A stretch of DNA of 64,000 bases from NCBI GenBank assembly GCA_041658625.1, contig JBAZZW010000002.1, positions 344,299-408,298 on the forward strand, in the 5' to 3' direction. This document shows positions 27,915 through 61,998 of the stretch, in pieces. This DNA is from Actinomycetota bacterium (lineage in GTDB: Bacteria > Actinomycetota > JAHEXW01). Under the pieces are notes generated by a model, which ran no database searches, was not told the DNA's origin, and was given only the letters and a program-made list of their open reading frames with translations. A program made the position numbers and the translations under genes. Position 1 is the first letter of the stretch. The number at the start of each line of letters is the position of its first letter.

Positions 27915-27922
27915 GCCGATAA
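27915..27922 (+). promoter_or_regulatory. GCCGATAA motif upstream of the minor-pilin genes
   Basis: Exact FliA -10-like 8-mer, 9 nt before the GTG of the FN3 pilin-like gene. No properly spaced TAAA -35. Confidence 0.25.
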
Positions 27923-27930
27923 TAGACTAG

Positions 27931-29019: not shown

Positions 29020-29032
29020 CGGGGAGGGTCCA

Positions 29033-29665: not shown

Positions 29666-29679
29666 ACTGGTGGTTTAAG

Positions 29680-38520: not shown

Positions 38521-39582
38521 ATGATCGAAAGGGGAACCGTCGCTAAGTACGAAGACGGAGAGATCATCTTCAACGAGAACGATTACGGCCGGGAAATGTA
38601 CGTCATCGAGACAGGCAAGGTCAAGATATTTAGAATCCGAAACAAAAGGGAAATCGTCTTGGCTACCCTGAAGAAGGGCGACTTTTTCGGCGAGATGGCT
38701 TTGTTTTCCGGTCTGTCAAGGTCGGCGTCTGTTCAAGCCATCGGCAACTGCCGCTTGAGAAGTGTTAACCGCATCGACCTGAAGAAGATCGTCGACGAAC
38801 CTGTCATCTGGCGGATTTTGCAGGAGATGAGCCAGAGGATCCGGGAGTTTGACGATAAGATGGAAGATCTTCTGATAGAGGATGAGCTCAGAAAGGTCAT
38901 CCAGCTTTTCCGCAGATATGTCGCGCCTCAGGTCGTAGATGAGATTCTAAAAACCTCAGGTACTGAAACTTTGGACCTAATGGGAGAATTGCGGGAAGTC
39001 ACCGTGTTATTCGCCGATATTAGAAACTTTACGTCGATTGCCGAGAAGATGCAGCCGCACGAGGTCGTTGAGTTATTGAACACATATTTGGGCGAGATGA
39101 CGCACGTGGTGTTCCGTTACGACGGCACGGTCGACAAATATATAGGCGACGCAATTATGGCGGTTTTCAACGCGCCGATGAAGCAGAAAGATCACGCCCG
39201 ACTGGCGGTAACGGCGGCGATGCATATCCAGGAAGCCGTGACGCGACTGCAGAAAGACAATCCGAACATATCGGTGGGGATAGGCATCAACACTGGCTCC
39301 GCGATTTTAGGCAATGTTGGCACAGAGCTGCACCTTGACTATACGGTTATAGGCGACGCGGTTAATATTGCCAGCCGGCTTTGCCGAGACGCAAAGGCCG
39401 GCGAGCTGTTGATAAGCCACTCTACATACGTGCAGATAAAAGAATATGTCACAGCTAACTGTCTGGACAGCAGGATGTTTAAAGGCAAGACGGAACCCGT
39501 GAAAGTCTACAACGTAAAGAACATGATAGAGGACGTCAAAGCGCCAAGGAAAACGGAAGGGAGCGTTTATGTCACCGGATAG
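38521..39582 (+). CDS. class III adenylyl cyclase with N-terminal cyclic-nucleotide-binding (CNB) domain
   Basis: N-terminal CNB (GDFFGEMALFSGLSRSASVQA). C-terminal CHD has metal Asps (VLFADIRNFT, KYIGDAIM), adenine-specifying K (DKYIGD) and D (LDYTVIGD), and transition-state N/R (GDAVNIASRL). Confidence 0.8.
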   Translation: MIERGTVAKYEDGEIIFNENDYGREMYVIETGKVKIFRIRNKREIVLATLKKGDFFGEMALFSGLSRSASVQAIGNCRLRSVNRIDLKKIVDEPVIWRILQEMSQRIREFDDKMEDLLIEDELRKVIQLFRRYVAPQVVDEILKTSGTETLDLMGELREVTVLFADIRNFTSIAEKMQPHEVVELLNTYLGEMTHVVFRYDGTVDKYIGDAIMAVFNAPMKQKDHARLAVTAAMHIQEAVTRLQKDNPNISVGIGINTGSAILGNVGTELHLDYTVIGDAVNIASRLCRDAKAGELLISHSTYVQIKEYVTANCLDSRMFKGKTEPVKVYNVKNMIEDVKAPRKTEGSVYVTG

Positions 39583-39991
39583 GGGTACGGTCAAGAAATA
39601 TGCGGACAAACAGGTCATATTCGAAGAAGGCGACCGAGGAGACAGGATGTACGTTGTCGTGTCCGGCTATGTGAGGATCTACCGGACGCGGGGCGGAAAG
39701 AACATTGATTACGGGATTATCGGACCCGGGGAATTTTTCGGAGAAATGGCGATGTTCGCCGAACACAAGCGGAGCGCGTCCGCGCAAGCCAAAGGCTTGA
39801 CCGAGCTGTCGGTCATCGACGTAGACAATTTTTTAGGCAGAGTCAGGGACCCGCTGGTTCTTAACGTAATCAAGAAGCTTTCTGAAAGAATAAGGGAAAT
39901 CGACGACCGCATCGAAGGTTTGATAATGCAGGATCAGGTCCGGAAGGAACATTTAAGCAACCTTATCACCCACAGTAGAAGGATCTACTAA
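39569..39991 (+). CDS. stand-alone cyclic-nucleotide-binding domain protein (no DNA-binding HTH)
   Basis: 140 aa. GEFFGEMAMFAEHKRSASAQA CNB signature. Overlaps the cyclase gene by 14 nt (operon). Confidence 0.75.
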   Translation: MSPDRGTVKKYADKQVIFEEGDRGDRMYVVVSGYVRIYRTRGGKNIDYGIIGPGEFFGEMAMFAEHKRSASAQAKGLTELSVIDVDNFLGRVRDPLVLNVIKKLSERIREIDDRIEGLIMQDQVRKEHLSNLITHSRRIY

Positions 39992-43426: not shown

Positions 43427-43483
43427 CATAGGACGGAAATCCGTTCGCGAATAAGAGATTCAAACGGGAGCTGCTATGAATCA

Positions 43484-43575
43484 AGCAAGCGGGGCGGCTG
43501 AGAGGACGCGGACGCGTCGACCGTTAACACCTGATCCGGGTAATGCCGGCGGAGGAAACTCAAAAGCTAATCGAG
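43484..43575 (+). promoter_or_regulatory. TPP (THI-box) riboswitch
   Basis: GGGGCGGCTGAGAGG…ACCTGATCCGGGTAATGCCGGCGGAGGAAA matches the THI element (CUGAGA … ACCUGAUCUGGAUAAUGCCAGCGNAGGGA). Sits 5' of thiM. Confidence 0.8.
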
Positions 43576-47428: not shown

Positions 47429-48209
47429 AACGCCCCTGGTGATCGTCGCGGGCGGCCTGGATCCCAGCGGGGGAGCCGGCCTGGCCGTAGACATAGGCGC
47501 CGTCCACGCTTCCGGAGCGATAGCTTTGCCTATCGCGACCTGCCTGACAGCCCAAAGCGCCGCTACAGCCTACGCCGTCTATCCCGTCGATCCGGAGATA
47601 GTCGGCTTGCAGCTTGAAGCCCTTTTTAAGGACAGCCGTCCTTCGATCATAAAGACCGGCCTTATTCAATCGTCGGCCATGGCCAAGCTCCTGGTCGAGT
47701 TTACCCGTCAGCATAACCTAAAACTTATTGCAGACCCGGTCATAAAAAGCACCTCGGGTTTGTTGATGGCCGGAGAAGGGGCCCCCGAATTCATGAGCAA
47801 TATTCTAGTTCCCGCGGCTTATCTGGTAACTCCAAATGCCAAGGAAGCGGAGATCCTGACAGGATTGAAAGTCAATGACGCGGCTGGAGCGAAATCGGCC
47901 GCGAAGAAGCTGGTCGAGTCGGGCGCGGCTAACGCGCTGGTTACCGGCGGACATATAAATTCCGATGGCGATATTTCCGCTGACTACTTGTATAATGGAT
48001 TTGATTTTGTCGAATTCAAAGCCAAACGGGAATCCGGCGGAGAAACGCGAGGGACCGGTTGTATGCTGGCGTCAGCTATCGCCGGTCGCTTGGCCGGCGG
48101 AGAGGATTTGGAGGAAGCAATAACCGAGTCAAAGACCTTCGTATCGGAAAGAATCGTCAAGGCAGCAAATATTGCGGGAACACGTGTGGCGACATTTGGC
48201 GGGGCTTAA
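47394..48209 (+). CDS. thiD: hydroxymethylpyrimidine/phosphomethylpyrimidine kinase
   Basis: VIVAGGLDPSGGAGLAVD…TGCMLASAIA. ATG 47394 is the likely start (the track ORF begins at 47373). Confidence 0.85.
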   Translation: MTTLQEEASENKTPLVIVAGGLDPSGGAGLAVDIGAVHASGAIALPIATCLTAQSAATAYAVYPVDPEIVGLQLEALFKDSRPSIIKTGLIQSSAMAKLLVEFTRQHNLKLIADPVIKSTSGLLMAGEGAPEFMSNILVPAAYLVTPNAKEAEILTGLKVNDAAGAKSAAKKLVESGAANALVTGGHINSDGDISADYLYNGFDFVEFKAKRESGGETRGTGCMLASAIAGRLAGGEDLEEAITESKTFVSERIVKAANIAGTRVATFGGA

Positions 48210-48233
48210 GAAAGGGTAAGGGATAAGAATAAG

Positions 48234-48947
48234 TTGGCTAACAAAAGAGACAAAGCGCTCTTGGAGCTGCAGGAAATTGACTCAACACTGGATAGGCTGA
48301 AGAAAGATCTGGAAACAATGCCGGAGAAGCAGGAACTGGCCGAGATAGAGTCTCAGCTTCAGGCGTCGCGGGATGAACTGGCCGAAGCCGAAAAATCGGT
48401 AGTGGATGTCGAACACAGCCAGAAAAAACGGGAAGACGAGTCGACGCGCTTCGAAGACAAAATAAAGAATGAAGAGAAAAAACTGTACGCGGGGACGGTA
48501 ACGAATCCGAAGGAGCTTATGTCGCTACAACAGGAGATAAAGGTCTTGTCGGACGAGAAGGACACAGTCGACACGGAGTACTTGATCGGCCTTGACGAGT
48601 TGTCGGAAGCCCAAGGCCTGGAAGCCGGGTTGAAAAACGATTTACGCGACAGGGAAGAAAAAGCCAAAACACTGGCCGAAACAATCAGTAAGAAAAGCCG
48701 CGAGCTCAAGGAAGCTATTGCCGGCTTAGCGGAAAAAAGAGATGCTGCGCTAAAAGACATTGATGAAATGACGCTGAAGACATACGAGCAGATGAGAGTC
48801 AAGGGTCACGGGAAAGCAGTCGCGATCGCGGCGGAAGGGGTTTGCGGGGGCTGCAACCTTGAGAACTCGGAAGACAGCGGACACGGTCCCAGCGGCGGTC
48901 CAGTAAGGCGGTGCGAATATTGCCACAGAATACTGATTTCGAAATAA
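48234..48947 (+). CDS. COG1579 zinc-ribbon/coiled-coil protein (Rv2229c-like)
   Basis: Long coiled coil then C4 zinc ribbon CGGCNL…CEYCHRIL. Sits immediately upstream of the RNase H gene, as in the mycobacterial Rv2229c-Rv2228c pair. Confidence 0.8.
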   Translation: MANKRDKALLELQEIDSTLDRLKKDLETMPEKQELAEIESQLQASRDELAEAEKSVVDVEHSQKKREDESTRFEDKIKNEEKKLYAGTVTNPKELMSLQQEIKVLSDEKDTVDTEYLIGLDELSEAQGLEAGLKNDLRDREEKAKTLAETISKKSRELKEAIAGLAEKRDAALKDIDEMTLKTYEQMRVKGHGKAVAIAAEGVCGGCNLENSEDSGHGPSGGPVRRCEYCHRILISK

Positions 48948-50170
48948 CCTTATTCGTTGACGGCGGCTCCCGCGGCAATCCGGGACCGGCGGCCATCGGC
49001 GCCATAATCAAAAAGGACGGCTCTGAAATAGAACGGATTTCCGAGTACATTGGCGAGACCACAAACAACCTGGCGGAATACAGCGCGCTGGTAGCAGGCT
49101 TGCGGCGGGCGGCTATGCATAACGCGGGCTCGATTCACGTTAAAGCCGACAGCGAGCTTATGGTCAACCAGTTGCTGGGAAAATTCAAGGTCAAGAATGC
49201 CGCCATTAAGCCGCTGTATGAAGAAGCAGTTGCCATCCTTAAGAAATTCGATAATGTGGGTATCGAAAGAATCCCCCGGGAGAAGAACGGCGAAGCCGAC
49301 GCTCTGGTTAACGAGGCCCTTGACGCGCGTACCGGCAAGAAGAAAAAGCCTAAACCGGGCAAAGGCGGGCTGGTAGGATTCTTGTCGGATTTCGGAACCG
49401 GAGACGCTTGGGCGGCGGTCGTCAAAGGCGTTATGAAAAAGGCCAATCCGTCGGTTGAGATAATCGACATCAGCCACGATGTACCCGCCTATAATATCCG
49501 TAAAGGAGCTTTTGTTCTGGAAACCGCCGTTGAACATATCCCGGCCGCGGTGTTTCTAGCGGTTGTCGACCCGGAAGTCGGCGGGCAAAGGAGATGCCTG
49601 ATTATAAGCACGACTTCGGGCACATATTTGGTCGGACCGGACAACGGCTTGCTGATGCCGGCCGCCGGCAGACTGGGCGGCACGGTGGAGGCTTACGCGA
49701 TATCGGTCCCTAAAGGAACAGAAAAGAGTGTGTCGGAAACCTTTCACGCCCGGGATGTTTTCGGTCCCGCGGCGGCGCGGCTGGCCGACGGAGTTCTACC
49801 TTCGGAACTTGGCGAGGAGATCGACCGGTCCGGATTAATTGCGGCGCCGTACGGACGGACGGATGTCGTCGACGGCGTGATTAATGCCGAGATCATTGAC
49901 GTTGACCGCTACGGCACGCTGCGTCTGAACATACGAAGGAGTGAAGCCGAACCGGCGGGATATACAATCGATAGATCGGTTACAATCGTTTTTGACGACG
50001 GCAAAACGACTCTAAAGGTAGTCAGGACTTTCCGCGATGTCGAGCAGGGCCGCGCCATGCTGCTCTATGATTCCTCCGATTACTTATGCGTTTCCGTAAA
50101 CGGGGCGCACGCCGGATTAGCCTTTGGCCTCAACGCCGGCGACCGACTGACCCTTAAGCTAACTGGCTAA
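48911..50170 (+). CDS. fusion protein: Rv2228c-type RNase H domain + DUF62 (SAM hydroxide adenosyltransferase/SalL-FlA-like) domain
   Basis: N-terminus ITLFVDGGSRGNPGPAAIGAII…TNNLAEYSAL…KADSELMV…NGEADALVNEALD (DEDD catalytic residues). C-terminus GFLSDFGTGDAWAAVVKGVM…IIDISHDVPAYNIRKGAFVL…VVDPEVGGQRR…VGPDNGLL matches the DUF62 signature. Confidence 0.8.
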   Translation: MRILPQNTDFEITLFVDGGSRGNPGPAAIGAIIKKDGSEIERISEYIGETTNNLAEYSALVAGLRRAAMHNAGSIHVKADSELMVNQLLGKFKVKNAAIKPLYEEAVAILKKFDNVGIERIPREKNGEADALVNEALDARTGKKKKPKPGKGGLVGFLSDFGTGDAWAAVVKGVMKKANPSVEIIDISHDVPAYNIRKGAFVLETAVEHIPAAVFLAVVDPEVGGQRRCLIISTTSGTYLVGPDNGLLMPAAGRLGGTVEAYAISVPKGTEKSVSETFHARDVFGPAAARLADGVLPSELGEEIDRSGLIAAPYGRTDVVDGVINAEIIDVDRYGTLRLNIRRSEAEPAGYTIDRSVTIVFDDGKTTLKVVRTFRDVEQGRAMLLYDSSDYLCVSVNGAHAGLAFGLNAGDRLTLKLTG

Positions 50171-50175
50171 GAAAG

Positions 50176-51066
50176 ATGGAAGAGGATCTGGCCCGATACC
50201 TTGGTTACCTAGAAAGCCAGAACCGGTATTCTCCGCACACGATAGACGCCTTCGGACGCGACGTAAAAACCTTTCTGGAGTTCTTGTCACGCTCGGGAAA
50301 GACGGATTTAGGGGCTGTCGATTACCGCTTTCTTAGAAGATATCTCGCCTATTGCGACACGTTAAAGCTCTCCAAAAATACCGTCAAAAGACGTCTTTCC
50401 GCTATCAGATCGTTTCTGTCTTTTCTCTGCAGCGAAGGCCGGTTGGAGGCCAACGCGGCTATGTTGGTAGGTTTCCCCAAGGCGCCGAAAACCTTGCCTA
50501 GGGTTCTAAGCCGGGACGAGGTCGTCAAGATGATCGAGGAGCCCGGGCCCAACCTCAAAAGGTCCTTGCGCGACCGGGCGGTACTGGAACTTCTTTACGC
50601 GACCGGCCTCCGAGTCAGCGAACTCGCGTCGCTTAATGTAAGGGATTTGAATCCGGAGACAAAGGAACTACGCGTCAAGGGAAAAGGAGATAAGGAACGG
50701 ATCGTTTTCTATACCGCGGTCGCCTCGCAAGCCCTGGCCGATTATGTGGCTATTGCGCGGACCAAAGACGCGGTAACGGAACCGCCTCCGGAAGCTTTGT
50801 TCATAAACAACCGAGGCGGCCGCCTGTCGGTGAGAAGCCTTCAGTATGTCGTCGAAGCGGCGGCCGGAAGAAGCCGGCTGGGACGGCGGGCCAGCCCGCA
50901 TATGCTCAGGCATTCTTTCGCCACGCATCTGCTGGAGGAGGGCGCCGATTTGAGGACCATCCAGGAGCTTTTGGGGCACGCCGACCTGGCGACAACGCAG
51001 ATTTACACGCATCTTGATAAACGGCGCCTTAAAAACGTCTACCGGCAAGCTCACCCGCGACCCTAA
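50176..51066 (+). CDS. xerC: tyrosine site-specific recombinase XerC/XerD family
   Basis: R…HxxR…Y catalytic set (HMLRHSFATHLL, LGHADLATTQIYTH). 296 aa. Confidence 0.9.
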   Translation: MEEDLARYLGYLESQNRYSPHTIDAFGRDVKTFLEFLSRSGKTDLGAVDYRFLRRYLAYCDTLKLSKNTVKRRLSAIRSFLSFLCSEGRLEANAAMLVGFPKAPKTLPRVLSRDEVVKMIEEPGPNLKRSLRDRAVLELLYATGLRVSELASLNVRDLNPETKELRVKGKGDKERIVFYTAVASQALADYVAIARTKDAVTEPPPEALFINNRGGRLSVRSLQYVVEAAAGRSRLGRRASPHMLRHSFATHLLEEGADLRTIQELLGHADLATTQIYTHLDKRRLKNVYRQAHPRP

Positions 51067-51085
51067 GTTGTAGTATTCTTTATTC

Positions 51086-51895
51086 ATGAATCGAATAGAG
51101 GCGAAACCGCAACAGGACAAGGAAAAGACACAAGAGCAGAACGAGATTCAGGAGGTCTGGCGGCAATACAAAGAAACGGCGGCGCCGGAGCTTCGCGACA
51201 GGTTGATTCTGCATTATGCGCCGCTCGTGAAATACGTTGCCGGCCGCATCTATGTTAGAGTCCCCCCAAACGTCGACCACGGAGATCTGGTAAGCTGCGG
51301 CGTCTTTGGTTTAATCGACGCCATCGAGAAATTCGACTTATCAAAGAACATTAAGTTCGAAACCTACGCCATCGCCCGAGTCAAAGGCGCCATCATCGAT
51401 GAACTTCGGTCCCTGGATTGGATTCCCCGCTCGATTCGCTTTAAAGCCAAAGAGCTGGAGAAGACCTACGTGGAACTCGAGGGACGCCTGAAAAGGACAC
51501 CGACGGACGAGGAAGTCTGCCGGGAACTCGGAATATCCAAGGATAAGCTCCATGAAACCATTAGTCAGATCGGCAACACGGCCGTAGTAGCCCTGGACGA
51601 CACCTTTACTGTCGGCAAGGATATGGACGGGCGCGTCGGCTTAATCGACATTATTGAAGACGAGACCAGCGCCGAACCGGCCGCGACCTTTGAGGTCGAG
51701 GAGATGAAGACGCTGCTCGCGCAGTCTATCGACCGCCTGCCGGAGCGGGAAAAGACCGTTATCGCGCTTTACTACTACGAAGGCCTAACATTGAAGGAGA
51801 TCGGCGAGGTTCTGGGGGTAACGGAATCACGCGTCTCGCAGATGCACACGAAGGCCATTCTGCAGCTAAAAGCAAAGCTGAAGCAGTATATTTAA
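51086..51895 (+). CDS. sigD: FliA/SigD (sigma-28)-family RNA polymerase sigma factor
   Basis: Collinear similarity to Bacillus SigD over regions 2-4 (LILHYAPLVKYVAGRI…GVFGLIDAIEKFDLSKNIKFETYAIARVKGAIIDELR…IALYYYEGLTLKEIGEVLGVTESRVSQMHTKA). Confidence 0.85.
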   Translation: MNRIEAKPQQDKEKTQEQNEIQEVWRQYKETAAPELRDRLILHYAPLVKYVAGRIYVRVPPNVDHGDLVSCGVFGLIDAIEKFDLSKNIKFETYAIARVKGAIIDELRSLDWIPRSIRFKAKELEKTYVELEGRLKRTPTDEEVCRELGISKDKLHETISQIGNTAVVALDDTFTVGKDMDGRVGLIDIIEDETSAEPAATFEVEEMKTLLAQSIDRLPEREKTVIALYYYEGLTLKEIGEVLGVTESRVSQMHTKAILQLKAKLKQYI

Positions 51896-51933
51896 TTTGA
51901 ACGGGTAAAAATATCTGTGATAAACTAGACGTT

Positions 51934-51966
51934 GCGTCTCTAAGGAAGAGACGCGCGTATTTTTTT
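51934..51966 (+). terminator. rho-independent terminator after sigD
   Basis: GCGTCTCT-aagga-AGAGACGC followed by GCGTATTTTTTT. Confidence 0.75.
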
Positions 51967-51991
51967 GCAAAAAAAGGGGGTGAGACAAGAA

Positions 51992-52855
51992 TTGGCAATT
52001 ATCTCGATGAAGAGCCTTTTAGAAGCGGGCGTACATTTCGGTCATCAGACAAGACGCTGGAATCCCAAGATGAAGAAGTACATCTACACCGAACGCAACG
52101 GAATCCACATTATCGACCTGGAACAATCGCTCGACTTCATTGATAAGGCCTACGGATTCGTTAAGGATGTGTCGACGAAAGGCGGGATGGTGCTGTTCGT
52201 GGGGACCAAGAAACAGGCCCAGGAAGGCATCAGGGAACAGGCCGACCGGTGTGATATGCCGTATGTGAACCAGCGCTGGTTGGGCGGTACGCTGACCAAT
52301 TTCGTCACCATTAAGGAGCGGTTGCGCCGACTGGAAGAGCTCGAAAAGAAAGACGAGAGCGACGACTGGGGAGGCCTGCCCAAAAAGACCATCCTGCAAC
52401 TAAAGCGCGAAAAGGAAAAGCTGGCCATCAGTTTAGGCGGTTTACGCAGGATGAATAAGCTGCCGGACATTATGTTCGTCATAGATGGCCGCAAAGAAGC
52501 CCTCGCCATAAAGGAGGGCCGGAAACTGGGAACGCCCATTATCGGGCTGATAGACACGAACAGCGATCCGGACGATGTGGACTACATCATCCCGGGCAAT
52601 GACGACGCTATCCGCTCGGTCAACCTGATCGCCAGGGTAATAGCCGACGCCGTCATGGAAGGCAAAGCGGGCTCCCAGGCGGTAAAGGACGCCGAGGCGG
52701 CCGCGGCGGAAACAGCCGCCGCAGAAGCTCCAACAAGCGAGCCAGCCTCTGCCGAGCCAGCCTCTGCCGAGGCTCCATCCTCGGCCAAGGATCCCGCCGC
52801 CGCTGAAGCTCCGGCGGGCAGGACGGCTGGTAAACCGGCTGTGGAAACAAAATAA
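51992..52855 (+). CDS. rpsB: 30S ribosomal protein S2 with low-complexity Ala/Glu/Pro C-terminal tail
   Basis: (M)[29 protein letters not shown] 51992 after RBS AAAAAGGGGGTGA. The track ORF starts at TTG 51965. Confidence 0.95.
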
Positions 52856-52874
52856 ACGAAAGGAAGAGAAGAAC

Positions 52875-53408
52875 TTGGCATCAGTAGATGAAATCAAGAA
52901 CCTTCGCGAAGTTACCGGCGCCGGCGTCATGGACTGCAAACGGGCGCTGACCGAATGCGGCGGTGACGCTGCCAAGGCGGCTGATTTCCTAAGGGAGAAA
53001 GGCCTCTTGAAAGCGGCCGATAAAAGCGAGAGAACGGCCAACGAAGGCCTGGTCGAGCCCTACATTCACGGGGGAGGCCGGCTGGGGGTCCTGGTCGAGA
53101 TAAACTGCGAGACGGACTTCGTCGCCAGAAATGAAGCGTTCAAGCAGTTCGCTCACAACGTCGCCATGCATATCGCGGCGGCCGCGCCGGATTACGTTAA
53201 GGAAGACGATGTGCCCAAGGAAATCCTGAAGGGCATGTCCGACGCCGAGGCGAAGGATTATCTTAAGGAAAAAGTCCTTTTGAACCAAGGCTTTGTCAGG
53301 GATGAGTCGATGACTATCGGTCAATTGCTGACCGACCTGGCCTCAAAGACCGGAGAGAATGTTGTCATCAGACGATTCGCTCGTTTCGGCCTGGGCGAGG
53401 AAGGATAA
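52875..53408 (+). CDS. tsf: elongation factor Ts (short form)
   Basis: N-terminal UBA-like [22 protein letters not shown]; TDFVARNE. 177 aa. Confidence 0.9.
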
Positions 53409-53411: not shown

Positions 53412-54128
53412 ATGCCGGAACCGGTATATAAACGGGTTCTGTTAAAGCTGAGCGGAGAATCGTTGGCCGACCCCGACTCCGGAACCGGCTTGTGCTACGA
53501 AATAATCGGCGCCATCGCCGAACAGATTAAAGCCGTCCACGATGAAGGTGTGGAAATAGCCATCGTCGTGGGCGGCGGTAACATTTTTCGGGGCGCTCCG
53601 GCCGAGAAACATGGTATCGAGCGGGCGACCGGAGACTATATGGGTATGGTGGCGACGGTAATCAACGCGCTGGCCATGCAGAACGCGCTGGAGCAGCACG
53701 GCGTTTTCACCCGCGTCCAATCGGCCATCTCCATGCAGGAGGTCGCCGAACCCTATATCAGGCGGCGGGCTGTCAGGCACCTTGAGAAAGGCCGAGTCGT
53801 CATCTTCGCGGCCGGCACCGGCAACCCGTACTTCACAACGGACACGGCCGCTTCGCTTAGGGCTTTGGAGGTCGAGGCGGACGCGATTATAAAAGCCACT
53901 CGCGTCGACGGCGTTTACGACTCAGACCCGGAAACCAATCCGTCGGCGAAGCTGTTTGACTCTTTGTCATACATGGACGTAATAAACCGCGATTTAAAGG
54001 TGATGGACGCAACGTCAATCACACTTTGCCGGGACAACAGCCTGCCCATAATCGTCTTCAACATCACCGAACCCGCCAATATCAAGAAAGTCATCCTGGG
54101 GGAGAAAATCGGTACTATCGTTTCCTAG
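53412..54128 (+). CDS. pyrH: UMP kinase
   Basis: VLLKLSGE…GGGNIFRG…[10 protein letters not shown] motifs. Confidence 0.95.
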
Positions 54129-54148: not shown

Positions 54149-54715
54149 ATGGACCAGTTCAGCGGCAAAATCGAGGTTGACGCCGAGCACCGGATGAAAA
54201 AAGCGATCCAGGTTTTGAGAGACGAGTTCATGACCGTCCGTACAGGCAGGGCGTCGACTGCTTTGCTAGACAGGCTAATGGTGGAATATTACGGCGCCGA
54301 AGCGCCGCTTATCCAGCTGGCGACCGTATCCGCGCCGGAACCGCGGCTTCTTGTAGTGCATCCGTTCGACAAAACGTCCATCCCGGCCATTGAGAAAGCC
54401 ATTCAACAGTCGGACTTGGGGATAACCCCCGGCAACGACGGCAACGTAGTGCATCTGCCTATTCCTCCGCTAAACGAAGAGCGCCGCAAAGACCTGATTA
54501 AAGTAGTCAAAACGATGGCCGAGGAAAGCCGGGTTGCCATCAGAAACGTCAGACGCGACGCCAACGAACATCTGAAGTCTCTCAAGAAGGACAAGAAAGT
54601 TTCCGAGGACGATGAACGTCGGGCTGAGGAAGAAACGCAGAGACTAACCGACAAATACATTAAAGAAATCGACGAGATGCTTAAGAATAAGGAGCAGGAG
54701 ATATTGGAGGTGTAG
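54149..54715 (+). CDS. frr: ribosome recycling factor
   Basis: …VRTGRAS…LD.I.VEYYG… ATG 54149 after GGAGGGA. The track ORF begins at 54026 inside pyrH. Confidence 0.95.
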   Translation: MDQFSGKIEVDAEHRMKKAIQVLRDEFMTVRTGRASTALLDRLMVEYYGAEAPLIQLATVSAPEPRLLVVHPFDKTSIPAIEKAIQQSDLGITPGNDGNVVHLPIPPLNEERRKDLIKVVKTMAEESRVAIRNVRRDANEHLKSLKKDKKVSEDDERRAEEETQRLTDKYIKEIDEMLKNKEQEILEV

Positions 54716-54737: not shown

Positions 54738-55520
54738 ATGAAAAAGACAACAGGTCTTCGCGCGGACGGTTCCGGCGAAGACCTATTTCTAGGAAAAATA
54801 GATAGGGCTAGAGTCCCGGCGCATGTCGCCATCATCATGGACGGCAACGGCCGCTGGGCCAAGAAACGCGCATTGCCGCGCATCGCAGGTCACAGGGCTG
54901 GCGTCAAATCGGTAAAGAGAGCGCTTGAAGCCGCCCGGAACTTGGGGGTCGATTACCTTACCCTGTACGCTTTCTCGCTGGAGAACTGGCGCCGGCCGGA
55001 GGATGAAGTCAGCGGGCTGATGAAGCTTTTGGTCGAAACGATCAAGGGCGAGCTGAAAGAACTGAACGATCAAGGCATAAGGTTAAAAGCCTTGGGCAGA
55101 TGGCGCGAGTTGCCGCCAGAGATTGTCGCGGAGATTGAAAAGTCGTTGGACTTGACGGCGGGCAACACAAAAGGCAACCTGGTCCTGGCGGTCAACTACG
55201 GCGGCCGCGCGGAGATCGTCGACGCCGCCAAGCGCTTGGCGGCCGAGGCCTCCTCGGGCGCGATAAATCCTGAGGATATCGACGAGGATGTTTTCGCTGC
55301 CAGATTATATGACCCCGAAATCCCGGATCCGGATTTGTTCATAAGAACCAGCGGGGAGATGCGCGTCAGCAACTTTCTATTATGGGAAATCGCCTACACG
55401 GAAATGTGGGTTACGCCGGTTTTATGGCCTGATTTCGACAAGAGAGACTTTTACGAGGCGGTCTACGAGTATCAAAAGCGTTCCAGGCGGTTCGGCGGCC
55501 TGGACCCTGAGGCAGGTTAA
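54738..55520 (+). CDS. uppS: undecaprenyl pyrophosphate synthase (cis-prenyltransferase)
   Basis: HVAIIMDGNGRWA…RTSGEMRVSNFLLWE. Confidence 0.93.
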   Translation: MKKTTGLRADGSGEDLFLGKIDRARVPAHVAIIMDGNGRWAKKRALPRIAGHRAGVKSVKRALEAARNLGVDYLTLYAFSLENWRRPEDEVSGLMKLLVETIKGELKELNDQGIRLKALGRWRELPPEIVAEIEKSLDLTAGNTKGNLVLAVNYGGRAEIVDAAKRLAAEASSGAINPEDIDEDVFAARLYDPEIPDPDLFIRTSGEMRVSNFLLWEIAYTEMWVTPVLWPDFDKRDFYEAVYEYQKRSRRFGGLDPEAG

Positions 55521-55522: not shown

Positions 55523-56305
55523 ATGCTGTGGGTTAGGATTGTCAGCGGACTTATCGGGGCTCCGATTCTGGTCGGCTTGATATGGCTGGGGTACTGGCCG
55601 TTCGCGGTGGCGGTTATCGCTTTATCTCTGATTGCGTTGCTGGAATACTACGCGCCGTGGCCGAACAAAAACATATTTCCGGTGACCTGGCTGGGCGTCT
55701 TGTTTGGTCTCACTTTTCCGGTTATGGTGGCGGCGGGTTTCCGTCAATTGATTATGGTTTTCATGGCGGCGCTGGTCGCCTCTGTCTTGATATGGCAGAT
55801 ATTTACGGCCCGCCGGGCGCGCGCCGGTCTTGACGCGGGTGTAACAGTCTTGGGATCGCTCTATGCGGGGCTTTTCCCAAGTTTTCTGATCTTGACCTAC
55901 CGTCTGGGATCCGGCCGGGACATTATCCTGGCCGCGGTCGTCTGCGTCTGGGCTTGCGATATGGCCGCGTTCTTTATCGGTAAGGCCATCGGAAGACACA
56001 AATTAGCGCCGGAAATCAGCCCCCAGAAAACGATTGAGGGAGCGGTGGCCGGCGCGGTCGCGGCGCTGTCGACTGGCGTTTTCTTTTCGGTTATTGGTTG
56101 GCTGAGCTGGCCCAAGGGCATTTCGCTGGGAATTACCGTAGCCGTCATCGCGCAGCTGGGAGACTTGGTCGCCTCGATGCTTAAGAGGGAAGTGGGCATT
56201 AAGGATTTCGGCCGCATCATCCCCGGTCACGGAGGAGTTTTAGACAGATTCGACGGTTTGTTTTTCGCCGCCCCGTTTATTTACATTTTGTTCTACCTGT
56301 ATTAG
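55523..56305 (+). CDS. cdsA: phosphatidate cytidylyltransferase
   Basis: Polytopic. C-terminal DLVASMLKREVGIKDFGRIIPGHGGVLDRFD signature. Confidence 0.9.
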   Translation: MLWVRIVSGLIGAPILVGLIWLGYWPFAVAVIALSLIALLEYYAPWPNKNIFPVTWLGVLFGLTFPVMVAAGFRQLIMVFMAALVASVLIWQIFTARRARAGLDAGVTVLGSLYAGLFPSFLILTYRLGSGRDIILAAVVCVWACDMAAFFIGKAIGRHKLAPEISPQKTIEGAVAGAVAALSTGVFFSVIGWLSWPKGISLGITVAVIAQLGDLVASMLKREVGIKDFGRIIPGHGGVLDRFDGLFFAAPFIYILFYLY

Positions 56306-56317: not shown

Positions 56318-57436
56318 ATGGAAAATATCGTAATCCTCGGCTCGACCGGCTCCATCGGCCGCCAAGCGCTGGACGTGATAGCCGCTTACCCCGACGAATA
56401 CAATGTTGTCGGGTTGTCGGCATTCTCAAACGCGGTTCTTTTAAAAGAGCAGGCAGCGGCCTTACCCGGCAACCCGAAGACCGCGCTGGCTTCAGGCATC
56501 GGCCTTGAAGGCATCCTGGAGCTGTGCCGTCTGAAAGAAGCCGACACGGTCATAAACGCCCTGGTTGGTTCAGCTGGCTTACGGCCGACTCTAGAATCCC
56601 TTAAAGCGGGCAAGCGCCTGCTTCTGTCAAACAAGGAGAGCCTGGTGGCGGGAGGTGAGCTTGTGATGAGGGCGGCCAGAGCTGCCGGCTGCGACATAAT
56701 CCCGATCGATTCGGAGCATTCGGCCATCTTCCAGTGCCTGACGGGTGAAAACATGTCCGAAGTCAAAAGGATTATTATAACCGCGTCCGGCGGACCGTTT
56801 CGCGGCCGGACGCGCGCGCAGTTGCTGAATGTGACTGTGGAAGACGCGCTGGCGCATCCCCGCTGGACCATGGGCCCGAAGATTACAATCGACTCAGCGA
56901 CCTTGATGAATAAGGGGCTTGAGGTCATCGAGGCGCATTTCCTGTTCGGCCTGCCGTACGAGCAGATCGACGTGGTTGTTCACCCGCAGAGCATTGTCCA
57001 TTCTTTGGTCGAGTTCGTCGACGGCAGCGTGCTGTCGCAACTGGGTCCGACCGATATGAGGTTGCCGATCCAATACGCGTTGACCTATCCTACCCGGCGT
57101 CCGACGCCGGCGGGCTTCATCGACCTGATACACCTTGGCAAGCTGACGTTTGAGGCCGCCGATAGAAAGACATTTCCGTGTCTGGAATACGGCTATGAGG
57201 CGGGGCGGCGGGGCGGCACCTACCCGGCCGCCGTCAACGCGGCTAACGAGGAAGCCGTGACGGCCTTCCTGAAAGCGGATATCGGGTTATCCGACATCCC
57301 GGCCGTTATCGAAGAGATTTTGGAAAGCCACACCGGCCAAGCCGCCGACTCTATAGAGGCCATCGAAAACGCGGAGAAGTCGGCTCGCGCCGGCGCTTTG
57401 GCCTATATCAATACGGTCACGGAGGGCTGGTCTTAA
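56318..57436 (+). CDS. dxr: 1-deoxy-D-xylulose 5-phosphate reductoisomerase
   Basis: ILGSTGSIGRQALDV NADPH motif; SEHSAIFQC; LANKESLV. Confidence 0.95.
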   Translation: MENIVILGSTGSIGRQALDVIAAYPDEYNVVGLSAFSNAVLLKEQAAALPGNPKTALASGIGLEGILELCRLKEADTVINALVGSAGLRPTLESLKAGKRLLLSNKESLVAGGELVMRAARAAGCDIIPIDSEHSAIFQCLTGENMSEVKRIIITASGGPFRGRTRAQLLNVTVEDALAHPRWTMGPKITIDSATLMNKGLEVIEAHFLFGLPYEQIDVVVHPQSIVHSLVEFVDGSVLSQLGPTDMRLPIQYALTYPTRRPTPAGFIDLIHLGKLTFEAADRKTFPCLEYGYEAGRRGGTYPAAVNAANEEAVTAFLKADIGLSDIPAVIEEILESHTGQAADSIEAIENAEKSARAGALAYINTVTEGWS

Positions 57437-57437: not shown

Positions 57438-58481
57438 GTGTGGTATATTCTGCTAGGAATCCTGGTCATCAGCATAATTGTGATTGTTCATGAGTTCGGA
57501 CATTTCGGATTCGCCAAGCTGTTCGGCATTCCGGTAGATGTTTTTTGTCTGGGCTACGGCAAACCGATCATCAAGAAAAAGATCGGCGGCACCGTCTATG
57601 GCGTCGGGCCGATACCGTTTGGCGGCTACGTTAAAATCCCAGGTCTGGACCCGCGGGAGAAGGAAATGCTCCCCCCGGAAGAAGCTGAGAAGTTTTTTCT
57701 ATACCCATACTGGAAGCGCGTCCTGATGGTGACGGGCGGGCCGGTCGCCAATACGATTCTGGCCTTCCTGGTCTATGTGGTTATCTTCATGGTCGGCGTC
57801 CCTGGCGTAACGACGACCATAGATAGCGTAGAAGCCAAATCCCCGGCGGCCAAAGCGGGTATAAAAGCCGGCGACAAGATTGTGGCGATTAACGGCGCCA
57901 GTGTTACGACATGGCAGCGGGCGGTCGAGAAACTACAGGGCGCCAAGGGCGATACGGTTAAAGTCACCGTCGTGCGAGATGGCAAGAAAATTACCTTAAC
58001 CAGCGGTTTCGGCACAAAGGACGGCGCCCGCTATATCGGCATCGTCGCCAAGAGGACTACCTATAACATCGGTATGGGTTTCTTTCCGGCAGTTCAAGCT
58101 GCTTTCATATGGGTAGCCACGTTGTTCTACGAGATATTTAGAAGCCTTGTCCTGCTGCTGATGGGAAGGTTGCCGTTCCGGCCGATGAGTCCTGTCGGCA
58201 TCGTACAGGTAACGAGCCAAGCCGCCCAACACGGCTATATAATCTTCCTGAATTTCGTGGCCTTTATAAACGTCGCGATCGGAGCGACAAATCTGATACC
58301 GATTTTCCCGTTGGACGGGGCGAGGGCCCTGCTATGGACGGTCGAGCGGGTGATAAGACGGCAGCTTTCCAACCGCGCGGTTTACGCTTACCAGTTCACC
58401 GGCGTCGGCCTGCTGCTCTTGGCCACTATTTGGGCTCTTTATCTTGATATTTTTAAGGCCATACCCGATCCGTTTAAGTAG
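57438..58481 (+). CDS. rseP: RIP site-2 metalloprotease RseP/YluC family
   Basis: HEFGHF zinc motif, PDZ domain, LDG motif (NLIPIFPLDG). Confidence 0.9.
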   Translation: MWYILLGILVISIIVIVHEFGHFGFAKLFGIPVDVFCLGYGKPIIKKKIGGTVYGVGPIPFGGYVKIPGLDPREKEMLPPEEAEKFFLYPYWKRVLMVTGGPVANTILAFLVYVVIFMVGVPGVTTTIDSVEAKSPAAKAGIKAGDKIVAINGASVTTWQRAVEKLQGAKGDTVKVTVVRDGKKITLTSGFGTKDGARYIGIVAKRTTYNIGMGFFPAVQAAFIWVATLFYEIFRSLVLLLMGRLPFRPMSPVGIVQVTSQAAQHGYIIFLNFVAFINVAIGATNLIPIFPLDGARALLWTVERVIRRQLSNRAVYAYQFTGVGLLLLATIWALYLDIFKAIPDPFK

Positions 58482-58595: not shown

Positions 58596-59681
58596 TTGAA
58601 CATTGTCAGATTGAAGACTCGACAAATCAATATCGGCGGTGTAACGGTCGGCGGCAACGCCCCTGTCCGCGTTCAATCCATGACCAACACCAAGACCGCC
58701 GACGTCGAGAAAACGCTCAAGCAGATCAAACGGTTGGAGAAAGCGGGCTGCGAGTTGATCCGCGTTTCGGTGCCTGACGAACAATCGGGCAACGCGATTA
58801 AGGACATAAAGCCCGACATGAAGGTTCCGCTTATCGCCGACGTTCATTTCGACTGGCGGATGGCCATACTGGCCATGCAAAACGGCGCGGACTGCGTCCG
58901 GATAAATCCCGGCAACATGCGAGACCAGGATATATCGGCGGTGGCCGCGGAGGCTAAGAAACTCGACAAAGCCATGCGCGTCGGCGTCAACGCCGGCTCA
59001 ATCAGGGAAGACATCCTTAAGAAACACGGCCACCCGACGCCGGAGGCTCTAGTGGAAAGCGCGGTCGCCGCGTCCGCCGTTCTGGAGAAGGCCGGCTTTA
59101 ACGAGTTCAAGATATCCGTCAAAGCCAGCTCGCCGACCTCGACCATTGACGCCTATCGGCTGCTATCGAAGCAATCCGAATACCCGCTTCACATCGGCGT
59201 AAGCGAGGCCGGTCCTTTTGTCTCCGGGACTGTCAAATCGTCGGTAGGTTTGGGAATTCTCCTCTCTGAAGGCATCGGGGACACAATGCGTGTTTCCTTG
59301 ACGGCCGATCCCGTGGACGAGGTGTTTATCGCCAGGGAGATCTTGTCGTCGCTGGGTTTGATTAAGAAACTAGACATTATCTCCTGCCCGACCTGCGCCC
59401 GGACAAGTTTTGACTTAATCGAACTGGTCAGGGACGTCGAGGAAGAGCTTGGCAAGGGCGATTATCCGCCTATCACGGTGGCCATAATGGGATGCGTTGT
59501 GAACGGACCGGGCGAAGCCAGGGAAGCAGATATAGGCCTGGCGGCGGGTAAGGGCAAGGGAGCGATTTTTAAGAACGGTGAGGTAGTTCGCACGGTCAAT
59601 GAAGACGATTACCTCGACGAATTAATGCGCGAGATAGATATAATAAAGCGGGATTATAAAGAAAACGACTGGCAACACTAA
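58596..59681 (+). CDS. ispG: 4-hydroxy-3-methylbut-2-enyl diphosphate synthase
   Basis: VRVQSMTNT…CPTCAR…GCVVNGPGE 4Fe-4S cysteines. TTG start. Confidence 0.95.
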   Translation: MNIVRLKTRQINIGGVTVGGNAPVRVQSMTNTKTADVEKTLKQIKRLEKAGCELIRVSVPDEQSGNAIKDIKPDMKVPLIADVHFDWRMAILAMQNGADCVRINPGNMRDQDISAVAAEAKKLDKAMRVGVNAGSIREDILKKHGHPTPEALVESAVAASAVLEKAGFNEFKISVKASSPTSTIDAYRLLSKQSEYPLHIGVSEAGPFVSGTVKSSVGLGILLSEGIGDTMRVSLTADPVDEVFIAREILSSLGLIKKLDIISCPTCARTSFDLIELVRDVEEELGKGDYPPITVAIMGCVVNGPGEAREADIGLAAGKGKGAIFKNGEVVRTVNEDDYLDELMREIDIIKRDYKENDWQH

Positions 59682-59745: not shown

Positions 59746-61197
59746 GTGACCGATCTAACTATAGATGAGAAGATGCCCGAGAAGCTGACCAAGAAGAGTC
59801 AGAATATGTCCCGCTGGTACACAGACGTCATCAGGATGGCTAAACTGGCCGACTATGCGCCCGTCAAGGGCTGTATGGTTATCATGCCGTACGGTTTCGC
59901 TCTGTGGGAGAACGTCAGGGACGCGCTGGACAGCCGCATCAAGGAAACCGGCCACGTAAACGCGTATTTCCCGCTCCTCATTCCGGAGAGTCTCCTCCAA
60001 AAAGAGGCCGAGCACGTGGAAGGCTTTGCGCCGGAGGTCGCCTGGGTGACGGTCGGGGGCGGGGAAGTGCTGGAAGAGCGCCTGGCCATCAGACCGACCA
60101 GCGAAGCTATTATATGCTCAATGTACAGCAAATGGATCAGGAGCTACCGCGACCTGCCGGTCCTAATCAATCAGTGGGCCAATATCCTTCGTTGGGAGAA
60201 GGTCACGCGGCTATTCCTGAGGACAACGGAGTTTCTCTGGCAAGAAGGGCACACTGTGCACGCTACGGCCGAAGAGGCCGAAGCCGAGGCTTTGAAAATG
60301 CTCGACGTCTACCGGGAGTTTGCCGAGAACGTCCTGGCCATGCCGGTACTGGTCGGCCTCAAATCGGAATCGGAGAAATTCGCCGGCGCGTCAACGACCT
60401 ACGCAATAGAGGCTTTGATGAGCGACGGGAAGGCTTTGCAGGCCGGCACCTCGCACGACCTGGGCCAGCATTTCGCCAAGGCCTTTGATATCAAGTTCCT
60501 GGACAAGGACGAAACCGAGAAGTTCGGCTGGCAAACGTCATGGGGCGTATCAACGCGGTTGATCGGAGGATTGGTCATGACGCACGGCGACGACGCGGGC
60601 TTGATCATGCCGCCTCGCATCGCGCCCGTCCAAGCTGTAATCGTGCCGATATGGGACGACACCAACAAAGAGGCGGTCGGGGCGGTCGCCAACGCTTTAA
60701 AGGACGCGCTGAGTAAGAAGTTTCGTGTAGAAGCGGACCTTCGCGACGAGTACAGACCGGGCTGGAAATTCAATGAACACGAGCTTCGCGGTGTACCTCT
60801 GCGAATTGAAATCGGTCCCAAAGACATAGAGAAAGACCAGGTTGTAGTGGTTAGACGGGACACCAAAGAAAAGATATTCATACCTCAGGCACAACTTGAA
60901 TGTGAGGTTGAGCGTTTACTGGAGGAAATCCAGCAATCTCTATACGCAAAGGCCTTAATATTCCAGAAGGAGAATACATTCAAAGTAAAAACGCTGGACG
61001 AGATGAAGAACGTGATGCGACAAACGCGCGGATTCATGGACGCGCACTGGTGTGAGTGTCCCGAGTGCGAGGATAAGGTCAAAGCAGAAACCAAAGCGAC
61101 CATACGGGTGCTGCCGTTCAACGAAGAGCAGACGGATGGAAAGTGCGCAGTCTGCGGAAAACCGGGAAGGCGAGCAATCTTTGCCCAAGCATATTAA
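59746..61197 (+). CDS. proS: prolyl-tRNA synthetase (archaeal/eukaryote-like short form)
   Basis: 483 aa. Class II motifs 1-3, C-terminal zinc motif CAVCGKPG…. Confidence 0.93.
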   Translation: MTDLTIDEKMPEKLTKKSQNMSRWYTDVIRMAKLADYAPVKGCMVIMPYGFALWENVRDALDSRIKETGHVNAYFPLLIPESLLQKEAEHVEGFAPEVAWVTVGGGEVLEERLAIRPTSEAIICSMYSKWIRSYRDLPVLINQWANILRWEKVTRLFLRTTEFLWQEGHTVHATAEEAEAEALKMLDVYREFAENVLAMPVLVGLKSESEKFAGASTTYAIEALMSDGKALQAGTSHDLGQHFAKAFDIKFLDKDETEKFGWQTSWGVSTRLIGGLVMTHGDDAGLIMPPRIAPVQAVIVPIWDDTNKEAVGAVANALKDALSKKFRVEADLRDEYRPGWKFNEHELRGVPLRIEIGPKDIEKDQVVVVRRDTKEKIFIPQAQLECEVERLLEEIQQSLYAKALIFQKENTFKVKTLDEMKNVMRQTRGFMDAHWCECPECEDKVKAETKATIRVLPFNEEQTDGKCAVCGKPGRRAIFAQAY

Positions 61198-61206: not shown

Positions 61207-61302
61207 AAATAGACTCGCATGCTGCTCGCGATCTACCATCGTTAGTGCTTTGGGGTCAGGCCCTTTCTTCTTAAGTGATAGGGCCTGACCCCATGTTTCA
61301 AG
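61207..61302 (+). repeat. ~95-nt direct repeat with 12-bp-stem hairpin (copy A, 3' of proS)
   Basis: AAATAGACTCGCATGC…CTACCATCGTT…GGGGTCAGGCCC-(17 nt)-GGGCCTGACCCC-ATGTTTCAAG. Near-identical copy at 62008-62122. Confidence 0.85.
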
Positions 61303-61316
61303 AAAAGCATTGGTTT

Positions 61317-61324
61317 GCCGATAA
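61317..61324 (+). promoter_or_regulatory. GCCGATAA motif upstream of the GT2 gene
   Basis: Exact 8-mer 27 nt before ATG 61351. Confidence 0.25.
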
Positions 61325-61350: not shown

Positions 61351-61998
61351 ATGAAAGTAATCGTGATCATTCCGGCATATAACGAAGCGGAGAGGATCGG
61401 AGCCGTCATCGGCGCCGCTAAGGCCTGCCGGGAGGTTGACGATATCCTGGTAGTTGATGACGGAAGCAAGGATGATACCGTAGAGGCGGCCAAGGAATAC
61501 GGCGTAAACGTACTGGCTTTGTCTCACAACATAGGCAAAGGCGGGGCAATGTGGTCCGCGATCATGGCCACGGACGCTGACGTGGTCGTTTTTATAGACG
61601 CCGACCTGCAGGGATTACGCCCCAAACACCTAGCGGCATTGATCCGGCCGATGCGGGAAGACGAAACCCTGGACATGACGGCCGGCCGTTTTACAGGCGG
61701 CCGCATGGCAACCGACATGTCGCAGAAGTTCATGCCCAGCATAAACAGCCAGCGTGCCATCAAACGATCTCTCTTGCTGAAGGTCCCCGACTTTAGTAAA
61801 TCCAGGTTCGGCGTTGAAACAATTATTAATGAATATATCAAGAAAAACGGGGCCAACGTCCTGGAAGTGCAGCTGGCGGGCGTTTCTCATGTTATGAAAG
61901 AAGAGAAAGACGGCCTTGTCAAAGGCGCTTCTGAACGCGCGAAAATGTACGGAGACATAATTAAGTCAAAGGTCAAGAAACAAGAACCTAAGAAATAG
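61351..61998 (+). CDS. family 2 glycosyltransferase (Dpm1/GpgS-like)
   Basis: MKVIVIIPAYNEAERI…VVDDGSKDDT…FIDADLQ (DxD). ATG 61351 after AAAGGA. The track ORF begins at 61315. Confidence 0.8.
   Translation: MKVIVIIPAYNEAERIGAVIGAAKACREVDDILVVDDGSKDDTVEAAKEYGVNVLALSHNIGKGGAMWSAIMATDADVVVFIDADLQGLRPKHLAALIRPMREDETLDMTAGRFTGGRMATDMSQKFMPSINSQRAIKRSLLLKVPDFSKSRFGVETIINEYIKKNGANVLEVQLAGVSHVMKEEKDGLVKGASERAKMYGDIIKSKVKKQEPKK

Follow-up and report, generated by a model that had tools for sequence, protein, structure and literature searches.

A WhiG-type sigma factor at the xerC-rpsB position of an uncultured Actinomycetota lineage and its probable role in type IV pilus control

In Bacillus subtilis the sigma-28 gene sigD is the last but one gene of the fla/che operon and lies upstream of rpsB; on the B. 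subtilis map rpsB-tsf-pyrH-frr-uppS-cdsA-dxr-rseP-proS follows downstream, and the xerC-type gene codV stands on the far side of the operon. The DNA analysed here, a 64-kb stretch (the window) of a metagenome-assembled genome (MAG) from an uncultured member of the Actinomycetota, has a sigma-28 gene between the same flanks, with no flagellar gene beside it. What does such a sigma factor do at this position? An original prediction, made from the sequence, regarded it as a SigD-like factor retained where a fla/che operon is missing, and as either an evolutionary remnant or a rewired regulator. Our analysis points to a functional WhiG2-type sigma factor, encoded at a standard actinobacterial locus and most likely regulating type IV pili. 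Positions follow the numbering of the window, and the layout comes from a list of open reading frames together with gene calls on the identical public contig (L081). The central features are as follows.

50176-51066, plus strand: gene for an xerC-like tyrosine recombinase of 296 aa (NCBIfam TIGR02224, NF001399)
51067-51085, plus strand: xerC-whiG spacer of 19 nt, GTTGTAGTATTCTTTATTC, without a Shine-Dalgarno sequence (direct sequence reading)
51086-51895, plus strand: whiG, gene for a WhiG-type (WhiG2-like) sigma-28 factor of 269 aa (NF004935)
51992-52855, plus strand: rpsB, ribosomal protein S2, with a TTG start and the N terminus M-A-I-I-S-M-K... (TIGR01011)

The sigma protein has the Pfam domains Sigma70_r2, r3 and r4 and passes the FliA/WhiG family model TIGR02479 (278.5 bits against a cut-off of 189.6), which bears out its predicted membership of the sigma-28 (FliA/SigD/WhiG) family. 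Within that family it passes the WhiG equivalog of NCBIfam, NF004935 (374.9 bits against 343), and fails the non-WhiG equivalogs NF005809 (233.1 against 326), NF004572 (214.4 against 378) and NF009091 (118.9 against 339). Its best match in the PDB is Streptomyces venezuelae WhiG (6PFJ), with 312 bits and a gapless alignment of 248 residues at 58% identity, whereas FliA chains reach ~160 bits and 39% identity; the Rubrobacter construct WhiG_Rr, being truncated, reaches only 133 bits. An identical protein in an NCBI MAG (MFA5867662.1, Actinomycetota bacterium) is annotated 'RNA polymerase sigma factor WhiG', and the nearest database proteins (72-95% identity) lie on uncultured metagenome contigs, a 95%-cluster member having sources in NCBI, JGI, ENA and Logan. 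A genome scan with one genome per species, of which the best 80 loci were kept, gave only Actinomycetota WhiG in those 80 (55-61% identity), from Frankiaceae, Streptomyces and Kitasatospora to MAGs of Acidimicrobiia and Coriobacteriia. Judged by these NCBIfam, PDB, database and genome-scan matches, the window belongs to an actinobacterium and its sigma gene is orthologous to whiG; it is not a Bacillus-type sigD, and 'SigD-like' is too specific a description. The window has ispG between rseP and proS; this is the actinobacterial order, as on the Mycobacterium tuberculosis map, and fits an actinobacterial origin.

The whiG gene is intact and under strong purifying selection. Compared with its orthologue in a relative whose WhiG is 95% identical (L085), the proportions of synonymous (pS) and nonsynonymous (pN) differences are 0.60 and 0.027, and the ratio of nonsynonymous to synonymous substitution rates (dN/dS) is 0.023; in comparisons with more distant relatives synonymous sites are saturated, with pN near 0.1. 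Across lineage relatives in which aroE, a gene elsewhere in the window, is 52-84% identical, WhiG is 78-95% identical, and it is still 78% identical in the genome with an aroE of only 52% identity. These data bear on the idea that the gene is a leftover of a deleted fla/che operon, without a regulon and either drifting or kept by accident. That its position matches that of Bacillus sigD, at the fla/che end beside rpsB, with partial synteny of whiG (PMC4255298), is what such a leftover has in its favour; it is opposed by the intact reading frame, by a dN/dS of 0.023 with synonymous sites near saturation, by the greater conservation of WhiG than of aroE, by the conservation of DNA-binding and cyclic di-GMP (c-di-GMP) contact residues and of candidate target promoters, and by the occurrence of the gene at the same position phylum-wide, including in Streptomyces, where WhiG function is proven. 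The selection data effectively refute the remnant interpretation, to which we give very little credence; of the two options originally offered, the evidence favours the rewired regulator, the dN/dS value and the conserved candidate target promoters contradicting the other.

The position of whiG was compared by tblastn of the window proteins against the 80 genome loci. In 33 of the 34 non-Streptomycetaceae loci with enough flank xerC lies directly upstream of whiG on the same strand, whereas adjacent xerC occurs in none of the 42 Streptomycetaceae loci. Downstream, rpsB lies within 10 kb in 71 of 72 loci, followed by tsf-pyrH-frr and usually by cdsA, the whiG-rpsB gap in the actinobacterial loci having a median of 1.9 kb (range 0.2-7.9 kb). 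No flagellar cluster stands at the xerC-whiG-rpsB position in any of the 80 loci. The possibility that flagellar genes lie between whiG and rpsB elsewhere in the Actinomycetota was rejected on the two largest inserts (L051 and L014, the only inserts annotated), which hold ROK, amidohydrolase, aminotransferase and ABC-transporter genes. The order xerC-whiG-rpsB-tsf-pyrH-frr is the phylum norm of the Actinomycetota, and there is no deletion at the locus in this particular genome; any fla/che operon formerly at this slot, if it ever stood there, left before the Actinomycetota diversified. The 'missing fla/che operon' is thus an analogy with the Bacillota only. The likeness of the flanks to those of Bacillus sigD does hold, and Chandra and Chater (2014, PMC4255298) had already noted that B. 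subtilis keeps part of the whiG synteny.

Within the window the genes from tsf to proS lie on the same strand as whiG:

52875-53408, plus strand: tsf
53412-54128, plus strand: pyrH
~54149-54715, plus strand: frr
54738-55520, plus strand: uppS
55523-56305, plus strand: cdsA
56318-57436, plus strand: dxr
57438-58481, plus strand: rseP
58596-59681, plus strand: ispG
59746-61197, plus strand: proS

The originally described order, from xerC through the sigma gene and rpsB to proS, agrees with the open reading frames and gene calls. The described short gap between xerC and the sigma gene is also present, though it measures 19 nt and not 18 nt; the end coordinate first given for the feature, 51992, is the start of rpsB, the sigma gene itself ending at 51895 and being followed by a spacer of 96 nt. 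The product of 50176-51066 is matched best in NCBIfam by XerC TIGR02224, where its 331.3 bits narrowly miss the cut-off of 335.15; with 289.8 bits it exceeds the 279 required by the tyrosine-recombinase subfamily model NF001399. The TIGR01011 score of rpsB is 332 bits against a cut-off of 76, and its gene call on L081 has the same start. The gene order was found again in every relative examined, and is therefore not due to chance; three lineage relatives keep thiC-thiL-thiD, a CT398-like gene, an RNase H/SAM-hydrolase fusion gene, xerC, whiG, rpsB and a 177-aa tsf product. As had been predicted for the neighbourhood of the sigma gene, flagellar and chemotaxis genes are absent from the ~60 annotated genes of the window; none occurs in the ~20-kb loci of six relatives, and neither FlgM nor a flagellar regulon was found in the ~160 kb of lineage sequence read.

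With B. subtilis SigD the window protein shares the sigma-28 family and promoter consensus. The differences are that the window has no flagellar operon between xerC and the sigma gene, that it has ispG between rseP and proS, and that SigD is under FlgM control, FlgM being absent from almost all actinobacterial flagellar clusters; nor is the window gene encoded in, or at the end of, a flagellar/chemotaxis operon, as a SigD-type gene is. The likeness to WhiG of S. venezuelae and Streptomyces coelicolor is closer, comprising the NF004935 match, the 58% identity to 6PFJ (the S. venezuelae protein has also been solved with RsiG and c-di-GMP, 6PFV), the c-di-GMP contacts K57/G61/R62, four of five RsiG contacts, and a location of whiG upstream of rpsB-tsf-pyrH-frr-cdsA. 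The Streptomycetaceae differ in having no adjacent xerC and ~1.7-2.5 kb between whiG and rpsB, compared with 96 nt here, and the whiH/whiI/sporulation regulon of Streptomyces is family-specific and unexpected in this lineage.

If not flagellar genes, what might the sigma factor transcribe? A type IV pilus cluster lies ~30 kb upstream of whiG, and contains three candidate WhiG promoters, P1 to P3, the third weaker than the others:

20553-20578, plus strand: P1, TAAA-N14-GCCGATAA, in the 143-nt spacer before aroE-pilB1-pilB2-pilT-pilC
20677-31074, plus strand: type IV pilus cluster (Pfam T2SSE+MshEN twice, T2SSE, T2SSF, N_methyl, fn3)
20677-21516, plus strand: aroE
21513-23189, plus strand: pilB1, overlapping aroE by 4 nt
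23190-24869, plus strand: pilB2
24915-25970, plus strand: pilT
25981-27201, plus strand: pilC
27229-27256, plus strand: P2, TAAA-N16-TCCGACAA, in the pilC-pilA intergenic region before the major pilin gene
27312-27743, plus strand: pilA, major pilin, with a classic G/FTLIELMVV site
27915-27922, plus strand: P3, weaker candidate, a -10-like box GCCGATAA before the fn3-containing minor pilin gene
27940-29019, 29033-29665 and 29680-31074, plus strand: minor pilins and unknowns

The cluster is also present in relatives L089, L090, L091, L094 and L095; the L096 contig ends in the second ATPase gene and so holds aroE, pilB1 and the start of pilB2 only. Promoters were compared across the orthologous region of six further lineage genomes, with aroE 52-86% identical. 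P1 is the sole exact match to TAAA-N14-17-GCCGATA in the window, where 0.12 would be expected by chance. Its boxes are present in all seven genomes, the window included (aroE 52-100%), while the spacer sequence diverges and the spacer length stays within 14-16 nt: four have TAAA-N14-GCCGATAA, two have N15, one of these with GCCGATAC, and the most distant reads TCAA-N16-GACGATAA. At P2, whose spacer sequence likewise diverges, the form CTAAAG-N14-(T/C)CCGA occurs in five of six genomes, with TAAG in the sixth; the CCGA core is invariant and the bases that follow it vary (CAAT, AAAA, AAGT, TGAA, TGTA), a pattern of an invariant CCGA with varying TAnnnT positions which fits sigma-28 and not sigma-70. 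At P3, ATGCCGATA(A/T) is kept in all five genomes that have the fn3-containing minor pilin gene. The motif GCCGATAA has 13 copies on the two strands of the window, seven of them on the plus strand; four of these seven fall in the intergenic 5.65% of the sequence (binomial estimate p ~3e-4), P1 and P3 being two of the four.

Other sigma-28-like sites were rejected: one at 12424 is not conserved in relatives, one at 31217 is inside a HIT-family gene, and one at 61298-61324 (TCAA-N15-GCCGATAA) is absent from L085, in which the proS and glycosyltransferase genes overlap. The last of these sites, 27 nt upstream of a family-2 glycosyltransferase gene (61351-61998), closely follows a strong post-proS hairpin. 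Further matches lying within genes were disregarded. Directly after the major pilin gene, at 27744-27830, there is a hairpin with a T-run, GAGGCGGCGCGG...CCGCGCCGCCTC. It is very strong and conserved in relatives, as would fit a separate pilA transcript made at a high level.

There is precedent for such an arrangement. In Rubrobacter radiotolerans, three of the 12 WhiG promoters mapped by transcription start site (TSS) are in the pilus cluster, where they define three transcription units (PMC8325347), and WhiG has been predicted to act on pilus clusters in a further five actinobacterial families (PMC12871210). The (RsiG)2-(c-di-GMP)2-WhiG switch of R. radiotolerans (Schumacher et al. 2021, PMC8325347) shares with the present case a unicellular-type, early-branching actinobacterial setting and several sigma-28 consensus promoters in the pilus cluster, three there and two to three conserved here. 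The Rubrobacter promoters are TSS-confirmed, and its RsiG has been identified and crystallised, whereas the promoters here are predicted from sequence; a further difference is that the window showed no WhiG-type promoter before any gene for a c-di-GMP enzyme, and the sequence read no RsiG.

Does the sigma factor have the features of one governed by c-di-GMP? Actinobacterial WhiG proteins split into two clades, WhiG1 and WhiG2 (Denis et al. 2026, PMC12871210). RsiG does not bind to WhiG1, which goes with flagellar clusters, while WhiG2, which includes Streptomyces WhiG, is regulated by the c-di-GMP-armed anti-sigma factor RsiG; the diagnostic c-di-GMP contacts of WhiG2 are Lys57, Gly61 and Arg62 in S. 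venezuelae numbering, and the RsiG contacts in its sigma-4 domain are Thr235, Leu236, Tyr239, Glu240 and Leu242 (PMC12871210). In the gapless alignment with 6PFJ, all three c-di-GMP contacts K57/G61/R62 are kept in the window protein, as K49/G53/R54, the aligned FliA having K, Y and H at these positions. Four of five RsiG contacts are identical (A227, L228, Y231, E232, L234), T235 being replaced by Ala, and relatives L085, L092 and L093, with WhiG 78-95% identical, carry the same contact residues. The diagnostic residues, together with the best hits and the lack of flagellar neighbours, make it likely that the protein belongs to the WhiG2 clade. Of WhiG1, 62% is encoded in or near a flagellar cluster, and it has no conserved K/G/R contacts and no RsiG binding (PMC12871210); the window gene shows the opposite on these points. 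With the WhiG1-type and Actinoplanes missouriensis FliA paralogues it shares the status of an actinobacterial sigma-28 factor, the Actinoplanes ones also driving type IV pilus genes.

Since the c-di-GMP and RsiG contact residues are kept, the activity of WhiG is probably checked by a c-di-GMP-armed RsiG-type anti-sigma factor encoded elsewhere in the genome. Two looser forms of the RsiG motif gave no match in six-frame regular-expression searches of the window, L085 and L089-L091. rsiG was found beside whiG in none of the 80 loci, and because the two genes are thus unlinked, a missing RsiG motif in the window and loci says little either way. In each of the PilB ATPases encoded at 21513-23189 and 23190-24869 the motif LGxxLVxxGxIxxxxLxxxLxxQ occurs twice in tandem near the N terminus (aa 9-30 and 38-59). 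It is MshEN-like, the signature with which MshE binds c-di-GMP, and its presence in both proteins suggests that c-di-GMP may also act directly on pilus assembly, as for MshE. At 38521-39991 there is a gene for a fusion of cyclic-nucleotide-binding and adenylate/guanylate cyclase domains, adjoining the gene of a stand-alone cyclic-nucleotide-binding protein.

Several observations weigh against a WhiG that serves the pilus cluster under c-di-GMP control. That WhiG uses P1-P3 is predicted solely from their consensus and conservation. Four genomes have a P1 spacer of 14 nt, shorter by 1-2 nt than the published optimum, which Helmann is said to have put at N15 in 1991. A later account gives N16 (PMC12871210). 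P1 contains GATAAT, a possible target of a housekeeping sigma factor. In the window P3 has no canonical -35 box, and we rate it lower for this reason and because its predicted leader is only ~10 nt long. The likely placement in WhiG2 and not WhiG1 draws on diagnostic residues, best hits and gene context; the strict RsiG motif E(X)3S(X)2R(X)3Q(X)3D is absent from six-frame regular-expression searches of the window and loci L001-L091; and neither GGDEF nor EAL genes were seen in the window. The remaining genome could, moreover, hold flagellar genes that are also served by the sigma factor.

Some of these points would fit an alternative in which the boxes of the pilus cluster are sigma-70/HrdB-type promoters or other sites, and WhiG controls genes elsewhere, e.g. 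those for c-di-GMP enzymes or the cell envelope. The GATAAT of P1 matches TATAAT at five of six positions, with TTAAAG 16 nt upstream, and the 13 copies of GCCGATAA show that this motif is not rare by itself; the short P1 spacer and the location of the P3 box, unusually near the ribosome-binding site, point the same way. The conserved positions are, however, those that sigma-28 needs (TAAA and a G/C-C-G-A core) and not those that sigma-70 needs, and at P2 the CCGA is invariant while the would-be TAnnnT bases vary. A sigma-70 consensus scan covered 48000-53000 and not the pilus cluster, and hence gives no evidence either way there. Overall we regard this alternative as improbable, though less so than the remnant interpretation.

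Somewhat more weight, but still that of an unlikely explanation, is due to the proposal that the organism is flagellated, with its flagellar regulon elsewhere in the genome and the sigma factor, alone or with a WhiG1 paralogue, directing late flagellar genes besides or instead of pili. The original prediction presupposed that the whole genome lacks a flagellar regulon, and the sequence read comprises 64 kb plus ~100 kb of related contigs. Among actinobacterial genomes that possess a flagellar cluster, 46% have a WhiG2 as well, and inside such clusters the consensus sequences of WhiG1 and WhiG2 overlap (PMC12871210). In Actinoplanes, flagella and zoospore pili are both driven by WhiG-like (FliA-family) sigma factors (PMC8325347). 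By our own estimate from the figures of PMC12871210, around a quarter of WhiG2-bearing genomes are also flagellated, and it is for this reason that the proposal keeps the weight it has. Over and against this, neither the window nor the ~20-kb loci of six relatives has a flagellar or chemotaxis gene, WhiG2 is uncorrelated with flagellar clusters (Mantel r = 0.14) whereas WhiG1 is correlated with them (r = 0.84; PMC12871210), and the conserved sigma-28 boxes that were found all lie in the pilus cluster.

The preferred explanation, i.e. pilus control by a WhiG2-type factor, can be put together as follows. WhiG is a group-3 sigma-28 factor of an uncultured, deep-branching Actinomycetota lineage, and in the RNA polymerase holoenzyme it would recognise promoters of the form TAAA-N14-16-(G)CCGAnnn. 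Transcription of aroE-pilB-pilB-pilT-pilC would start from P1, that of the major pilin from P2 and that of the minor pilins from P3. A c-di-GMP-armed RsiG-type anti-sigma factor would probably hold WhiG in check, and WhiG most likely turns pilus production on, in a manner like that of the RsiG-(c-di-GMP)-WhiG switch in Rubrobacter.

How whiG itself is expressed can be considered from its two spacers. The 19-nt xerC-whiG spacer is conserved in L085, and in the more distant L092 and L093 the spacer is 58-60 nt, with a sigma-70-like TTGACG-N18-TAAAAT in L093; given the longer spacers and this element, it is likely that whiG has its own promoter in the lineage. In the window, the promoter may lie within the 3' end of xerC, or whiG may be transcribed by read-through from xerC. 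On the other side of the gene the terminator scan gave one feature:

51933-51965, plus strand: GC-rich hairpin with a T-run, a 9-bp stem with five GC pairs and the tail CGTATTTTTT

This hairpin is conserved in L085 and could be the whiG terminator, or else an attenuator or part of the rpsB leader. Before it, in the whiG-rpsB spacer (51897-51965), there is TTGAAC-N18-TAAACT with an upstream TG; the TGnTAnnnT element, at 51918-51926 just after the whiG stop codon, occurs in four genomes and, although below the threshold of the scan tool, could be the rpsB promoter.

The leader between P1 and aroE (20579-20676, ~100 nt) is conserved and non-coding: its CUUUGGGCGAAAGA block is invariant, indels between genomes break the reading frame, and five base pairs show compensatory changes across six genomes. 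It has no Rfam match even at a permissive E-value, and when 383 kb were searched with a covariance model of the six orthologues, these six copies alone were recovered. The leader may represent a regulatory RNA, not described before, that acts on the aroE-pilus operon. Three RNA elements elsewhere in the window are above the Rfam gathering thresholds, i.e. a SAM riboswitch before metK (196-303), a TPP riboswitch before the thiM-thiE-thiC-thiL-thiD operon (43454-43575) and a 6S RNA gene (12209-12344).

The neighbours of whiG have features of their own. Mycobacterial RNase H carries an acid phosphatase as partner domain; the window instead has, directly upstream of xerC, a gene for a fusion of RNase H with a SAM hydrolase/SAM hydroxide adenosyltransferase of the DUF62 type (48911-50170; gene call ~48920-50170), which all lineage relatives keep. 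Two genes upstream of whiG, 48234-48947 encodes a coiled-coil zinc-ribbon protein of the CT398/CdsZ (HP0958-like) family; members of this family in Chlamydia and Helicobacter associate with alternative sigma factors and type III/flagellar export, and the linkage to whiG may be coincidental. The elongation factor EF-Ts encoded at 52875-53408 has only 177 aa, ~100 residues below the usual bacterial length, and the tsf model matches it in two stretches; the short form is kept in L085, L092 and L093 and, by gene spacing, also in the Actinomycetota MAGs L022, L030 and L050.

The compactness of the locus, with spacers of 19 and 96 nt, makes the cross-phylum synteny with Bacillus sigD easily visible. 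The shared position allows an evolutionary reading in which WhiG2, and not WhiG1, may be the positional descendant of an ancestral sigma-28 gene that closed a fla/che operon beside rpsB, a place that sigD still has in the Bacillota. The flagellar cluster and a duplicated sigma factor (WhiG1) may then have moved away or been lost, and the sigma factor left in the xerC...rpsB slot may have been recruited to c-di-GMP control, pili or sporulation. If true, this would modify the scenario of Denis et al. 2026, in which WhiG1 is the copy that retained the ancestral association. We offer this descent and, separately, a regulatory RNA in the aroE leader as tentative proposals that are, on the whole, rather unlikely.

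The use of sigma-28 factors in organisms without flagella is a textbook case of regulator re-use, and the system described here adds an example to known biology but is no new type of system, the residual novelty lying in the evolutionary reading of the shared sigD/whiG-rpsB position and in the conserved leader RNA before the pilus operon. WhiG is known to act in sporulation in Streptomyces and on type IV pili in Rubrobacter (PMC8325347). The present results add an uncultured, early-branching lineage in which WhiG occupies the same slot and is apparently wired to pili via promoters conserved in at least six to seven genomes, supporting pilus control as an old and widespread role of WhiG2.

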